Assembly: GCF_003334305.1 (NCBI RefSeq) | Contig: NZ_QOWS01000010.1 | Length of the DNA stretch: 64,000 nt | Strand: one strand, 5' to 3' | Origin: Escherichia coli | GTDB lineage: Bacteria > Pseudomonadota > Gammaproteobacteria > Enterobacterales > Enterobacteriaceae | Shown here: positions 1,204-33,851 of the stretch, piece by piece | Position numbering within the stretch: position 1 is the first letter of the stretch | Layout of the letters: the number at the start of each line of letters is the position of its first letter | Notes under the pieces: generated by a model | Database searches by the model: none | The model's input: only the letters and a program-made list of their open reading frames with translations | Told to the model about the DNA's origin: nothing | Translations under genes and position numbers: made by a program

Positions 1204-1278
1204 CAATTCCTAACCCATCAACACAATAAAAAACCACGGGGCATCGCAGCCCCGTGGTTAAAACAAATGTTCAGTGAT

Positions 1279-2598
1279 TTAGTGAGCGCTGGAGGTCACC
1301 TGACGACCTGCCGCGCGATCCCAGATAATGGCCAGAACCACCATCACCACTGTTGGCATTAACCACGCCAGACCTTGTTCGGCCAGCGGTAAACGCTGCG
1401 CCCAGGACGGTAAGATATCGCTGAATGCAGATGCTTTGATCCCGTCGAGAATACCAAAAAGCAGGCTGATAAACATCGGCGGAGCAATCACGCGGGACGA
1501 ATTATGCCACCATGAGCGTGTAAAACTTAATACAACCAGTGCGATACACGGCGGATAAATAGCGGTCAGCACCGGTACGGAGATCTGGATCAGCTGGCTT
1601 AAGCCGAGGTTAGAAACCACCATCGAGAAGCCGCCGAGGATAAACACCAGCGTACGATAAGAGAGCGGTACGTACTGGGCAAAGAATTCTGCACAAGCAC
1701 AGGTCAGGCCAACTGCCGTTACCAGGCAGGCGATGAAGATTAACGCCGCCAGCAGGAAGCTACCGCCGCCGCCAAAGGTGTGCTGAACGTAAGCATGCAG
1801 AATAGCAGCGCCGTTTGCAGACTGATCGACCAGCGACGCGCTGTCTGAACCCAGACGGAACAGCGCCAGGTACAGCAGAGTCAGACCAACACCCGCCATC
1901 AGGCCAGCCCAGACGGTATAACGGGTCAGCAGACGCGCTTCGGTAACGCCACGAGAACGCGCCGCGTTAACAATAACGATACCAAACACCATTGCGCCCA
2001 GCGTATCCATGGTCAGATAGCCGTTAACGAAGCCGTTAGAAAACGCAGCGTTTTGATAAGCCTCAGTCGCCGTGCTGATAGAACCCGCCGGCCAAACAAT
2101 CGCGGCAACAGACAGGATGACCAGCGCGATAATTTTCAGCGGCGCAAGGAAGTTGCCCACGGTATCCAGCAGCTTGCCCGGATAGAGCGAAACCAGAATA
2201 ACGATAGCGAAATAGACCAGGCTGTAGATAAACAGCGGCAGCGCGGAATCACCAGTCAGCGGCGCAATCCCCACTTCAAAGGAAACGGTAGCTGTACGCG
2301 GCGTAGCGAAAAGCGGCCCCACCGCCAGGTAACAAACCGTTGCCAGCAGCACGCCAGCGACTTTACCGATTGGCGTGCTGAGGCTGTCAACACCGCCGCC
2401 AACTTTTGCCAGCGCCACTACCGTTAATACCGGCAGGCCAACGGCAGTAATGAGGAAGCCGAATGCCGCAGTCCAGACGTGTTCGCCTGCCTGCAAGCCG
2501 ACCATTGGAGGGAAAATAATGTTACCTGCGCCGACGAACAACGCAAATGTCATAAAGCCCAGAGCGATGATATCGCGCGATCTTAATTGATGGGTCAT
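1279..2598 (-). CDS. brnQ: Branched-chain amino acid transport system II carrier BrnQ
   Basis: 439-aa ORF, polytopic membrane protein, recognised as BrnQ; position between proY and phoR as in E. coli. Confidence 0.93.
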
Positions 2599-2948
2599 AA
2601 ATCATACTGCCTGTGGATGTGGTGTTGTAACGTTAAATTTTTGTGCCAATCCCTGGGGATGATACAGCGGTATATTTAAACAATTTTAGCGGGAAATACT
2701 CCCAACCAGGCGCGGCGAAGAATAGTTTTTCGATTTACCGCGTTAATGCAGTCAGTATGACAGCACCTGAAGCGCAATTTAAACGCTTATAACGTTTTAA
2801 AGCAAGGAGGGATCTAAAAACCAGAGGTATATAGCGATAAGAAATCACCAACCAGTATAAAACACTATTTCCGTGAAAAAGACATGGCTAATCATGCGAA
2901 CAAAAAATCACCAACCGTTGTAAAATCTAACGCCCGTATTTTGACTGC

Positions 2949-2977
2949 AAAGAAAATAAGCCAGCATCGGCTGGCTT
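2949..2977 (-). terminator. Putative intrinsic terminator downstream of phoR
   Basis: Perfect 8-bp stem AAGCCAGC/GCTGGCTT with 4-nt loop at 2958-2977, followed on the minus-strand transcript by a U-rich run (ATTTTCTTT). Confidence 0.55.
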
Positions 2978-3004
2978 ATGGCAATAAAAGATGACAAAGG
3001 CGGA

Positions 3005-4300
3005 TTAATCGCTGTTTTTGGCAATTAAACGTTCCGGGATAACAAAACTGAAACGTGTTCCTTTTCCTACTGTACTCTCAATATTCAGGCGACTTTCGTG
3101 ATGATTCACAGCATGTTTCACGATCGCTAACCCTAATCCGCTACCGCCGGTTTGCCGGGAACGCGCTTTATCAACGCGATAAAAACGCTCGGTCAGGCGC
3201 GGAATATGCTCCGCTGCAATGCCCGGTCCGTTATCTTCAACGCTAAATTCGGCACCGTGCGGCACTCGCTGCCAGCGTACGGTGATATGCGTGCCTTCTG
3301 GAGTATGATTCACGGCGTTATAGACCAGGTTCGAAATCGCACTGCGTAGCTGATCTTCGTTGCCAGACACTTTGAGGCCGTTATCTATCTCAAAGGTAAA
3401 TGTCTGTTTTTTCTGACTCAGAGTCTGAGCCTCACGCTCAACAACGCGCAGCATCATCGGCACATCAACCTTTTCATTGAGCAAATGCGTCGGTGCGGCT
3501 TCTATTTTCGACAGCGTCAGCAACTGCTTCACCAGCCCTTCCATCCGCTGGGTCTGCTCGCGCATGGTGTGCAACGCTTTTTCGCGTACCGCGCCTTCCA
3601 GCGGCTGCTCATCCATCATCTCCAGGTAACCCTGTAACACGGTCAATGGCGTACGTAACTCATGGCTCACGTTGGCAAAAAAGTTACGCCGCGCCCCTTC
3701 CAGTTGATGCATTTGCGTGACATCACGCGCCACCATCAGCAACTGTTTGTGGGTATAAGGCATGACGCGAATTTCCAGATGCCGCCCGGTGTTGAGCACC
3801 AGATTGAGCGGGCGAGAAAAATCACGCGTTTTCAGATATTGCGTAAACTCCGGGTAACGCAGCAGGTTAAGGATGTTCTGCCCGTTATCTTCCGGCCAGC
3901 GCAAACCAAGAATCTGTTGCGCCAGACCGTTACACCAGAAAATACCGCCCTCTTCCGTGGTCAGCACCACTGCGTCGGGCAGCGACTCCGCGCCGCTACG
4001 AAAGCGTTTAATCAGATTGCCCAGTTCACGGCGGCGTTTTTTATTTCGCAGCTGCATCTGGTGTAAGCCGTATAGTAGCGGTTCCCAGCTACCACGCCCC
4101 GGTGGCGGGGTCATACTACGATCCACCCACAGCCACCATGAAAGGCGCAATAAATTCCAGAAATGCCAGATAAGCAGTCCCGTTACCGATGCCAGCAAAA
4201 ACCAGGGCAGGTAACCAAAAAATGCACCCAGGATGAAAGCCGGGAGGCAGCAAAGTAACAGCTCCAGCACCAGCCTTTTCCACGACAGCCGTTCCAGCAC
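3005..4300 (-). CDS. phoR: Phosphate regulon sensor histidine kinase PhoR
   Basis: 431-aa ORF; N-terminal membrane anchor, histidine kinase motifs (HELRTPL), ATPase domain; adjacent to phoB. Confidence 0.95.
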
Positions 4301-10915: not shown

Positions 10916-11007
10916 TTGCCGGATGCGGCGTGAACGCCTTATCCGCCCTACGCGGTTCTGGCACATTTTGCAGGCCTGATAAGACGCGGCAAGCGTCGCA
11001 TCAGGCA
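10916..11007. repeat. BIME: two REP units in inverted orientation
   Basis: TTGCCGGATGCGGCGTGAACGCCTTATCCGCCCTA and AGGCCTGATAAGACGCGGCAAGCGTCGCATCAGGCA in the araJ-mak intergenic region. Confidence 0.8.
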
Positions 11008-26954: not shown

Positions 26955-30572
<3,618 letters not shown>

Positions 30573-31095
30573 TTGTCATCCCTCCTCAGGGACGTAATAA
30601 GTTGATCCATCAATTATCAATGCATAGAAAACATATTATGTTTCGCGCTAACGATTATGCTGCGTTACAGACGAATGGTTCAATTATTCTTTCCCCTAAG
30701 TCCGAATGTGGACATATATAATTTATGGAGAAAAACACGCATCAAATTGATAAAAGGACGATATTTCAACATGTTGCAGATAATGTTATTTTTGATACAT
30801 ACGCGTTATAAATATCAAAAACACAAACCAGATAAATATCTTATCAATATACAACAAAGTTTGAATAATTCAATTTATAGCAGCACAACCAAACGCCAAA
30901 AAATAATAACCAAGAGCTATAAATAAAGATTAAAAATATTTTCAGTGAATATGAAATTATTGCTATTTCTATTACAAAGATGTCCTGGCCTCTCTTCCAT
31001 TCTCTTCTTGTCAACATCGCGACAACTTTCGTAAAACACTCCTGCCCCGCTTCAGGTATACTGTGCACCTTAATTCCACAAACATCAGGCAGACC

Positions 31096-32070
31096 ATGAC
31101 AGACTTAATCCAACGCCCTCGTCGCCTGCGCAAATCTCCTGCGCTGCGCGCTATGTTTGAAGAGACAACACTTAGCCTTAACGACCTGGTGTTGCCGATC
31201 TTTGTTGAAGAAGAAATTGACGACTACAAAGCCGTTGAAGCCATGCCAGGCGTGATGCGCATTCCAGAGAAACATCTGGCACGCGAAATTGAACGCATCG
31301 CCAACGCCGGTATCCGTTCCGTAATGACTTTTGGCATCTCTCACCATACCGATGAAACCGGCAGCGACGCCTGGCGGGAAGATGGACTGGTGGCGCGTAT
31401 GTCGCGCATCTGCAAGCAGACTGTGCCAGAAATGATCGTCATGTCAGACACTTGTTTCTGTGAATACACTTCTCACGGTCACTGCGGTGTGCTGTGCGAG
31501 CATGGCGTCGACAACGACGCGACTCTGGAAAATTTAGGCAAGCAAGCCGTGGTTGCAGCTGCTGCAGGCGCAGACTTCATCGCCCCTTCCGCCGCGATGG
31601 ACGGCCAGGTACAGGCGATTCGTCAGGCGCTGGACGCTGCAGGCTTTAAAGATACGGCGATTATGTCGTATTCGACCAAGTTCGCCTCTTCCTTTTATGG
31701 CCCGTTCCGTGAAGCTGCCGGAAGCGCATTAAAAGGCGACCGCAAAAGCTATCAGATGAACCCAATGAACCGTCGCGAGGCGATTCGTGAGTCACTGCTG
31801 GATGAAGCCCAGGGCGCAGACTGCCTGATGGTTAAACCTGCTGGAGCGTACCTCGACATCGTGCGTGAGCTGCGTGAACGTACTGAATTGCCGATTGGCG
31901 CGTATCAGGTGAGCGGTGAGTACGCGATGATTAAGTTCGCCGCGCTGGCGGGTGCTATAGATGAAGAGAAAGTCGTGCTCGAAAGCTTAGGTTCAATTAA
32001 GCGTGCGGGTGCGGATCTGATTTTCAGCTACTTTGCGCTGGATTTGGCTGAGAAGAAGATTCTGCGTTAA
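31096..32070 (+). CDS. hemB: Porphobilinogen synthase (delta-aminolevulinate dehydratase)
   Basis: 324 codons from ATG 31096 ([23 protein letters not shown]...). Confidence 0.95.
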
Positions 32071-32175
32071 TTTTTTTCCTCTCAGAAAGGGGGAGTTAAC
32101 CTGTTGAAAGTACGGTGAACGCCCCCTCACCCTAACCCTCTCCCCAAGGGGGCGAGGGAACCGTCCGCACTCGTA

Positions 32176-33027
32176 TCACCCCGCCCGATAAAACGGTTTA
32201 TCCCCAAGGATCGTCGCCCGATGCATAATCCGCCGCTGTGGCAGGTAATCGGCATTGGCATAGTGCTGAGTCACGCGGTTATCCCAAATCGCAATATCAT
32301 TCGGTTGCCAGCGCCAACGCACCTGAAACTCCGGTTTAGTGATATGGGCGAATAAAAAGCCTAACAAGGCTTCGCTCTCTTTCTCGCTGACATCGACAAT
32401 TCGCGTAGTAAAGCCTTCATTCACAAACAGCGCCTGTTTACCGCTCACAGGATGCGTTCGCACCACCGGATGTAGCAACGGAGGATTTTTCGCGACCGCC
32501 TCGCGCCAGCGTTGATGTTCCTCCTCGGTTTTGCGGTATTTGTATTCCGGGAACGATTTACGGAAATCATGCTCCGCACGCAGCCCGCTCAGCAGCTGGC
32601 GGAAGGGAACAGAGAGCGCCTCATAGGCCGCAATACCGCTGGTCCAGAGCGTATCACCGCCGGTCGAAGGTAACTCTTTAGCTGCCAGAATCGCCCCTGC
32701 GGGTGGCGTTTCAATAAATGTCACATCGGTATGCCAGTTGTCGTTATCCGGCGGATTATCGTTATGGGTATCCAGCACGATGATCTCGTCAACCCCTTCG
32801 GCATGAGGGTAAACAGGGTGAATATGCAGTTCGCCAAAACGCTGGGCCAGCGCGCGTTGCTGCTGCGGCGTAATAGTTTGATCGCGCAGAAACACCACCT
32901 GATGGCGCAGCACCGCATGGTAAAGCTGTTCAAACTGATTATCGCTTAACGGGCGCGTCAGGTCGGCACCCGAAATTTGTGCGCCGATATACGGCCCCAG
33001 CGGGGTAATGCTCAGACGTTCACTCAT
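32176..33027 (-). CDS. tauD: Taurine dioxygenase (alpha-ketoglutarate dependent)
   Basis: 283-aa ORF recognised as TauD. Confidence 0.95.
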
Positions 33028-33851
33028 TGTACTTCTCCATGCCAGGGCGTCAGACGGCGCTGTAACGCGCGCAAACCCAGTTCTAAAAGAAAGGCGATAA
33101 TCGCAATCACCGCGATTCCCGCCAGCACCACGTCAGTCGCGAGAAATTCACCCGCTGACTGAACCATAAATCCTAAACCGCGCGTCGCGGCAATCAGCTC
33201 CGCCGCTACCAGCGTAGACCAGCCCACACCCAGACCAATGCGTAATCCGGTGAGGATTTCCGGCAGCGCGCCGGGCAAAATGACAAACCACAGCACCTGC
33301 GCACGGCTGGCACCCAGCGACTGGGCGGCACGAATGCGAACCTGCTGCGCGCTTTTCACCCCCGCCAGCGCCGACATCGCCACCGGTGCAAAAATCGCTA
33401 AATAGATCAGTAAGATCTTCGAGGTTTCACCAATACCAAACCAGATCACCATCAGCGGCAAATAAGCCAGCGGCGGCACCGGACGATAAAGTTCGATTAC
33501 CGGATCCAGAATGCCGCGCACCGTCGGGCTTAGCCCCATGGCGATCCCGACCGGAATACCGATCACCACCGCCGCGAGTAGCGCCAGCACAATGCGCGTC
33601 AGGCTGGCTGCCAGATGCTGCCACAGCGTGGCGTCCATAAATCCCTGCGGTCCGGCAATGGTGAGCAGTTTTGCCAGTACTTGTTGCGGCGGCGGCAAAA
33701 ACAGCGGGCTAATCAGTTGCAGCGCCGCCACCGTCCACCATACAGTGAGTAAAACCGCTAACGTGCCAATGCTTAAGGTCACCTGACGCGAGAGCGGCCA
33801 GCGCCATTTCAGCCGCCGCGAATGCAGTTTTTCATTAATGAGCACACTCAT
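33024..33851 (-). CDS. tauC: Taurine ABC transporter permease
   Basis: 275-aa ORF, ABC permease signature; 4-nt overlap with tauD start. Confidence 0.95.

Follow-up and report, generated by a model that had tools for sequence, protein, structure and literature searches.

The GC-rich palindrome between the convergent genes hemB and tauD in this stretch of Escherichia coli DNA is a copy of the E. coli BoxC interspersed repeat, also named PIT element and TMECO; the initial annotation, which had likened it to the short GC-rich intergenic repeat families of enterobacteria without assigning it to one, was right about its kind. As the core matches a catalogued copy exactly and fits the published family pattern, the element was already known down to the individual copy, and for the hemB-tauD locus the identification is of little consequence: four names have been given to the repeat in the literature from 1992 onwards, and two published tables include this particular copy, so that the observation is real but ordinary. 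Taking the evidence as a whole, we regard it as very probable that the gap holds a BoxC copy that is no Rho-independent terminator and that most likely acts in REP-like protection of RNA 3' ends. The mechanism at hemB-tauD in particular, a bidirectional REP-like 3' protective stem-loop, is a more tentative proposal, plausible though short of probable.

The hemB-tauD gap and the architecture of the element

The window, i.e. the whole 64-kb stretch of DNA that was analysed, is from E. coli, and the 105-bp interval that the initial annotation had placed between the stop codons of hemB (+) and tauD (-) was confirmed at 32071-32175, as was the presence of both strings that it had quoted from there, TTTTTTTCCTCTCAGAAAGGGGGAG (32071-32095) and GCCCCCTCACCCTAACCCTCTCCCCAAGGGGGCGAGGGAACC (32121-32162). 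The mechanical ORF of hemB spans 31063-32070 (+), and the G-rich strand of BoxC begins 17 nt past the tauD stop codon. The features of the locus are collected in Table 1.

Table 1 Features in and around the hemB-tauD gap, with positions in the window.
Feature	Position	Strand	Remarks
hemB (porphobilinogen synthase)	31096-32070	+	K-12-type start 31096; 3' UTR bears C-rich strand of BoxC
Small hairpin CCTCTCAGAAAGGGGGAG	32078-32095	+	Directly after hemB stop and T7 run; direct repeat
Inverted repeat AGGGGGAGTTAACC / GGTGAACGCCCCCT	32088-32127	+	Joins left flank (including CCTCTCAGAAAGGGGGAG region) to block 3 edge
BoxC / PIT / TMECO core, 36 nt, type 'A mm': CCCTCGCCCCCTTGGGGAGAGGGTTAGGGTGAGGGG	32123-32158	-	Exact 36/36 match to TMECO no. 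5
Block 3, GGGTGAGGGG (+ strand CCCCTCACCC)	32123-32132	-	Loop 2, TTA, at 32133-32135, marks type A
Block 2, GGGGAGAGGG (+ strand CCCTCTCCCC)	32136-32145	-	Loop 1, CTT, at 32146-32148
Block 1, C-rich arm, CCCTCGCCCC (+ strand GGGGCGAGGG)	32149-32158	-	Read from the sequence
Flank AACCGTCC	32159-32166	+	Beside block 1; GACYGTCC in E. coli copies (alignment of six loci)
tauD (taurine dioxygenase; last gene of tauABCD)	32176-33027	-	3' UTR bears G-rich strand of BoxC
K-12 Rho termination region, transferred position	32300-32350 (~32323)	+	By collinearity with K-12; low resolution (800-nt scoring windows)

Structurally, the unit is a module of about 36-45 nt in which one C-rich arm is followed by two mirror-related G-rich arms, its core reading CCCTCGCCCC-CTT-GGGGAGAGGG-TTA-GGGTGAGGGG on the minus strand. 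The imperfect palindrome of the initial annotation corresponds to the hairpin formed by CCCTCTCCCC and GGGGCGAGGG, with 5+4 pairs and one T/C mismatch, and the pattern CCCTCTCCC-N2-10-GGGNGAGGG that describes it occurs once in the window and in none of 100 shuffles. That annotation had overlooked a third block, CCCCTCACCC, which can pair with the same G-rich arm instead, and its presence makes this a three-block element. In folds, block 1 has two possible partners, block 2, with one G/A mismatch in the stem, and block 3, with one G-U wobble; the blocks are also triad-compatible, and blocks 2 and 3 together constitute a canonical G-quadruplex motif, GGGGAGAGGGTTAGGGTGAGGGGG, on the tauD-sense strand. 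The flank beside block 1 could belong either to the element or to its target, both being possible, since a tusA-zntA allele (strain SCU-313) retains a GGACCGATCG flank without the three blocks.

The stretch made up of the T run and CCTCTCAGAAAGGGGGAG lies outside the repeat core. Local alignment of CCTCTCAGAAAGGGGGAG to the BoxC core scored 16, against 9.3 ± 1.8 for shuffles (13 of 2,000 reached 16), which hints weakly that CCTCTCAGAAAGGGGGAG may be a degenerate remnant of half a BoxC hairpin with the orientation of the intact copy. The inverted repeat AGGGGGAGTTAACC/GGTGAACGCCCCCT offers an alternative stem of -18 to -19 kcal/mol in the fold. A permissive Rfam scan of 31000-33200 returned chance-level matches only (Antizyme_FSE, E = 7.7; snoU82P, E = 7).

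Adjoining hemB on its other side, an uninterrupted ORF of 968 aa with an autotransporter-like product occupies 27666-30572 (-). We take yaiT of K-12 to be a disrupted pseudogene, and this strain may have an intact yaiT. The table of Adams et al. 2021 has yaiT at that place in K-12.

Family identity

The core matches TMECO no. 5 of MG1655 at 36 of 36 positions, and the two sites are orthologous. Holder et al. 2015 (PMC4666352), who defined types A and B of TMECO, list 23 MG1655 copies in their Table 1, where no. 5 is given as CCCTCGCCCCCTTGGGGAGAGGGTTAGGGTGAGGGG at 388,664-388,699, type 'A mm'. Their family pattern, 5'-CCCTCNCCC N3-6 GGGNGAGGG N3 GGGNGAGGG-3', has a single match in the window, at 32124-32158 (-), and none in 100 shuffles. 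Kaplan et al. 2016, too, include this copy: it is no. 13 of their G-quadruplex motif HPG1, at distances of 31 nt to tauD and 54 nt to hemB. Read directly, the K-12 tauD-hemB gap has the same sequence except for three or four differences in the flanks; beside block 1 it has GACC where this strain has AACC, and after the hemB stop TTTTGTTT where this strain has T7.

Historically, the repeat has been named BoxC (Bergler et al. 1992), PIT (Hoyne et al. 2000; Hoyne and Maher 2002), TMECO (Holder et al. 2015) and HPG1 (Kaplan et al. 2016); the equation of BoxC with PIT and TMECO is made by Holder et al. 2015 (PMC4666352), according to whom it was found in the 1990s and rediscovered as PIT by Maher's group. 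The same authors counted 3,610 copies in 262 proteobacterial genomes, with none in Salmonella, and 29 copies in E. coli 55989 against 1 in IHE3034. Across Enterobacter, counts of potential triplex motifs of more than 300 stand against counts of fewer than 30. Two further papers put the number of BoxC copies in K-12 at 32-33 and the length of the unit at about 56 bp (51-59 bp as annotated in the original K-12 record), whereas the conserved block that we could align across six loci measures about 45 nt (CCCCTCACCCTAACCCTCTCCCCAAAGGGGCGAGGGGACCGTCC). The founding BoxC copy, expected downstream of fabI (envM), was not there when K-12 1,348,000-1,351,000 was read directly; the table of Holder et al. 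2015 (PMC4666352) has that copy at 1,351,204-1,351,239, upstream of the gene.

Copy number and alternative alleles in E. coli

A search of complete E. coli genomes, wider than the copy count within the same genome that the initial annotation had proposed, returned a multi-copy rather than a single-copy sequence. At a permissive threshold, the 105-nt gap matched 88,804 places in all 5,426 genomes (5,426/5,426), and a 57-nt core query (E <= 0.01) matched 82,240 places in 5,409 of the 5,426, with a median of 17 copies per genome (range 1-30; 19 in K-12 strains). This range agrees with the published 29 and 1 for 55989 and IHE3034. Among evenly sampled genome rows, about one fifth had five copies or fewer (e.g. 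2 in NC101). Like the hemB-tauD copy, which sits between two stop codons, the five other copies that we examined (purK-ybcF, eutH-eutG, dolP-yraQ, ytfR-ytfQ and tusA-zntA) are all intergenic, and the six loci, when aligned, have the core CCCCTCACCCTAACCCTCTCCCCAAAGGGGCGAGGGGACCGTCC in common between unrelated flanks. Holder et al. 2015 (PMC4666352) found TMECO always intergenic in E. coli, its neighbouring genes without a common functional class, and no regulatory pattern relative to ORFs.

At the hemB-tauD gap itself, a 505-bp query across the locus was covered to at least 80% in 3,601 genomes, and nearly all remaining genomes gave two pieces spanning 439 bp. Three alleles were distinguished. 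The first is a gap of 105/106 bp with BoxC. The second, EcN-like and present in about one third of the 5,426 genomes, is an unrelated 39-bp gap without BoxC, which contains GCCGGGTTatccAACCCGGC, a hairpin of -16.7/-17.2 kcal/mol (z = -4.0/-3.2) with no U tract; as about a third of strains thus have a different hairpin there, BoxC is dispensable at this site. The third, of 152-157 bp (SLK172 and FDAARGOS_943), is longer by a 52-bp segment that follows BoxC between the copies of a direct repeat of about 19 nt, and in FDAARGOS_943 the middle block is lost as well.

Other gaps vary in similar ways. BoxC occupies dolP-yraQ in only 429 genomes, a REP/BIME taking the same gap in the others, and it is nearly fixed at tusA-zntA (5,148 genomes), where strain M1/5 has REPs added beside BoxC and SCU-313 lacks the three blocks. 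The replacement of one hairpin-forming sequence by an unrelated one between convergent genes fits a protective-hairpin model, and it also fits the unusual variability of TMECO loci relative to control loci reported by Holder et al. 2015 (PMC4666352). We propose that BoxC is acquired or lost as a unit. Comparison of filled and empty alleles at hemB-tauD and dolP-yraQ gave no readable clean insertion junction or target-site duplication, because the entire intergenic segment is replaced at both.

RNA folding and transcript 3' ends

Energetically, the two-block hairpin is predicted at -16.4 kcal/mol as RNA of the tauD strand and at -16.7 as RNA of the hemB strand, and the tauD-sense core reaches -26.6 to -30.1 kcal/mol (z = -2.4 to -2.75) through G-U pairs and the third block. 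The fold-energy check put forward by the initial annotation therefore bears out a stable stem-loop (-16.4 to -30.1 kcal/mol), but one not much more stable than G/C-rich shuffles of the same composition (z = -0.7 to -2.75). The gap folded as a whole is no more stable than its shuffles (z = -0.6 and -1.05), and only the core of the G-rich strand stands out.

RNA 3' ends, which the BoxC papers (Holder et al. 2015, Kaplan et al. 2016) do not mention, map to BoxC hairpins elsewhere in K-12. In the Term-seq data of Adams et al. 2021, the end at 3,781,065 (+), at lldD, lies 4 nt past the hairpin of TMECO 17, within a Rho region and with an intrinsic terminator score below 3, and the end at 3,959,467 (-), at ppiC, lies 4 nt past the hairpin of TMECO 20. 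These two ends cover both orientations of BoxC, and their hairpins (-18.4 and -17.5 kcal/mol) compare with -16.7 and -16.4 kcal/mol at hemB-tauD. A further end, at 632,098 (+), falls 11 nt past a variant BoxC copy downstream of cstA. Such ends resemble what Dar and Sorek 2018 described, namely Rho-terminated transcripts that end right after stable stem-loops devoid of a U tract, which shield them from PNPase and RNase II; some of these stem-loops are REP elements, and rut sites lie downstream of the stem-loops. At hemB-tauD, the same combination of a stable stem-loop without a U tract and Rho read-through beyond it was found for the hemB strand in K-12.

From a mechanistic perspective, we posit that BoxC, transcribed from either side, would form a stable hairpin that no U tract follows (near -16.5 kcal/mol, and -26.6 to -30 kcal/mol where the third block joins in, as RNA of the tauD strand), that RNA polymerase would pass it and be stopped by Rho further downstream, and that 3'-to-5' exonucleases would then trim the RNA back to the hairpin, such that BoxC would serve both convergent genes as a REP-like module guarding RNA 3' ends. 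At the DNA level, the same sequence would be a structure-prone repeat, given to forming a hairpin, triplex or G-quadruplex in vitro. The curated Term-seq list of Adams et al. 2021 has no 3' end within 388,400-388,899 in K-12, so that the Term-seq comparison suggested by the initial annotation yielded no end there, and at this particular locus the protective role is an inference; tauD would presumably not be expressed in Term-seq media. Further points weigh against protection: the hairpins are not much more stable than shuffles, the Rho regions past BoxC copies may simply reflect the position of these copies at gene ends, PIT elements had no influence on transcription in vivo in the functional study as summarised by Holder et al. 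2015 (PMC4666352), and about one third of genomes have no BoxC at hemB-tauD.

Alternative explanations

The initial annotation had read the palindrome as a bidirectional terminator, which in the Rho-independent sense would stop hemB and tauD transcription at the hairpin. In its favour are the setting, a GC-rich hairpin between convergent genes, and the sharp ends 4 nt past the stem at two other BoxC copies, but the sequence that follows the stem has no U tract on either strand (the next 8 nt read AACCGTCC for hemB, +, and GCGTTCAC for tauD, -, with only 1-2 T each), a promoter and terminator consensus scan found no site in the gap, and PIT was without promoter or terminator activity and without in vivo effect on RNA polymerase in Hoyne and Maher 2002, as summarised by Holder et al. 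2015 (PMC4666352). The end at the lldD copy, with its low intrinsic score and its place within a Rho region, also argues against intrinsic termination. For K-12, Supplementary file 2 of Adams et al. 2021 records a Rho termination region with its best coordinate at 388,499 (-), antisense to tauD (Rho score 3.80, p = 2e-9); as this region is on the strand of hemB, some 165 nt beyond BoxC, hemB transcription would read through BoxC and be stopped by Rho, and such read-through is what the initial annotation had said would speak against its terminator. On the sequence here, the published assays and the K-12 data, the hemB-tauD BoxC is not a Rho-independent terminator, and we leave that reading next to no probability; a weaker form of it survives in the proposed hairpin that would define or protect RNA 3' ends in both directions. 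Another reading has the C-rich strand, lying in the hemB 3' UTR, load Rho as a rut site. In its favour, the hemB strand is richer in C than in G over 32100-32225 (GC skew about -0.1 to -0.4), and a Rho region follows the element both here and at frlR-yhfS and ilvC-ppiC. Half of the C-rich tract would be sequestered in the hairpin, though, Dar and Sorek 2018 put rut sites downstream of protective stem-loops, and the 6 of 12 K-12 loci that have a Rho region at most 500 nt downstream comprise 3 in C-rich, 2 in G-rich and 1 in paired orientation. Since the 12 loci reveal no orientation specificity, we dropped the rut-site reading as very unlikely.

The alternative that we take most seriously holds that BoxC is passive, a selfish or relic repeat that contributes nothing to the expression of hemB or tauD and whose hairpin has at most incidental effects. 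Its absence from about one third of E. coli genomes at this site, a copy number that runs from 1 to 30 per genome (29 versus 1 between published strains), neighbours without a common functional class and no in vivo effect (Holder et al. 2015, PMC4666352), and the empty Term-seq record at hemB-tauD would all be expected of such a repeat. Against this stand the 3' ends at BoxC hairpins elsewhere, the strong conservation of the three blocks across phyla (among the matches listed), and the equally stable hairpin at the same spot in the BoxC-less allele, which suggests that a hairpin is wanted there; we consider passivity possible, on balance doubtful. A role at the level of DNA, as a G-quadruplex, hairpin or triplex switch that regulates transcription or promotes local rearrangement, draws on the canonical G-quadruplex motif on the tauD-sense strand, on published in vitro work in which other copies formed triplexes, hairpins and G-quadruplexes, on the variability of TMECO loci relative to controls, and on the three alleles at hemB-tauD, including the 52-bp indel with its direct repeat of about 19 nt. 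In vivo DMS footprinting, however, did not support a stable triplex, there is no regulatory pattern relative to ORFs (Holder et al. 2015, PMC4666352), and the variability is possibly a consequence of mobility rather than of function, so we judge a DNA switch improbable. The REP-like protective stem-loop remains the reading that we prefer.

BoxC-like cores beyond E. coli

Beyond E. coli, a scan of one genome per species for GGGAGAGGGNNNGGGTGAGGG returned at least 120 stretches. Among the matches listed, none was enterobacterial; they came from alpha-, gamma- and deltaproteobacterial MAGs and from Gracilibacteria, Verrucomicrobia, Armatimonadota and Nitrospirales. An exact CCCTCNCCC block lay 3-6 nt upstream in 84 of the 141 GGGAGAGGGNNNGGGTGAGGG instances among these matches, and the variable base N of block 1 was T in 47 of those 84, G in 35, C in 1 and A in 1. 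Again among the matches listed, distant lineages had many copies of the core, in most cases together with the third block, and in a GL140_5 MAG and a LacPavin deltaproteobacterium the core sat inside longer, genome-specific repeat units.

In the Gracilibacteria MAG JALNXF01 (CPR; 28% GC, code 25), 17 of the 20 copies fall within open frames no shorter than 120 codons. At least 9 of its copies are mid-gene and in frame as 12 codons, coding for peptides such as NPHPNPLPEGEG, ALTPTLSQRERE and SLSLWERVGVRE; example genes are found at 1217-3167 (-) and 1720-2962 (+) on two contig stretches. Within its LepA, an inverted pair of BoxC-like cores accounts for an insert of about 39 residues that is missing from solved LepA structures, and one copy in a SufS-like gene does not differ from E. 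coli TMECO 17 in any of the three blocks or in loop 2. As Holder et al. 2015 and Kaplan et al. 2016 had the element always intergenic in E. coli and counted it only in proteobacteria, these in-frame copies may be new. One could imagine the BoxC core as a discrete unit of about 36 nt, mobile and carried by a hypothetical structure-recognising enzyme as far as Gracilibacteria (CPR), Verrucomicrobia, Armatimonadota and Nitrospirales, and lodged in the Gracilibacteria genome as 12 in-frame codons within housekeeping genes such as LepA and SufS, but we think this unlikely. If true, the hemB-tauD copy would be one insertion of a still-active cross-phylum element and no peculiarity of E. coli.

Implications for annotation

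In practical terms, 'BoxC repeat' and not 'terminator' is the annotation that suits the gap, and termination of hemB is best regarded as Rho-dependent, its transcripts running on into antisense tauD. To our knowledge, the BoxC family has been given no accepted function or mobilisation mechanism in 30 years. The 3' ends 4 nt past BoxC hairpins, the alternation of BoxC, REP and plain hairpins at the same sites, and the in-frame CPR copies provide testable leads on its role.

Comparison with known systems

All the defining features of the BoxC family recur in the hemB-tauD element: the three-block pattern, the intergenic position and the multi-copy distribution. It resembles intrinsic terminators, bidirectional ones included, in being a GC-rich stem-loop just past two convergent stop codons, and differs from them in that neither a U tract nor, on the opposite side, an A tract is present and in that the published test detected no terminator activity.

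Rickettsia palindromic elements (RPEs), reportedly described by Ogata and colleagues in 2000, are about 100-150 bp long and restricted to Rickettsia. The JALNXF01 cores are like them in being short palindromic repeats in frame inside protein-coding genes, whereas the BoxC core measures 36 nt and is always intergenic in E. coli.

REP/BIME elements were considered for the gap and rejected, the consensus GCCKGATGCG...CTTATCMGGCCTAC having no match in it. The window does contain 8 REP tails (CTTATCMGGCCTAC, at most 2 mismatches), where 0.5 would be expected (10938-10983, 13019, 42013, 44019, 48316, 57086 and 57761), none of them in the hemB-tauD gap. The sequences of the two families are unrelated, and REP forms a single hairpin whereas BoxC has a third block. 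REP is mobilised by the RAYT enzyme; for BoxC we know of no mobilising enzyme. Both are nonetheless short, GC-rich, palindromic intergenic repeats that are frequent between convergent genes, and REPs are known as RNA 3' stabilisers of Rho-terminated transcripts (Dar and Sorek 2018). The two families are alternative occupants of dolP-yraQ and stand side by side at tusA-zntA in M1/5.
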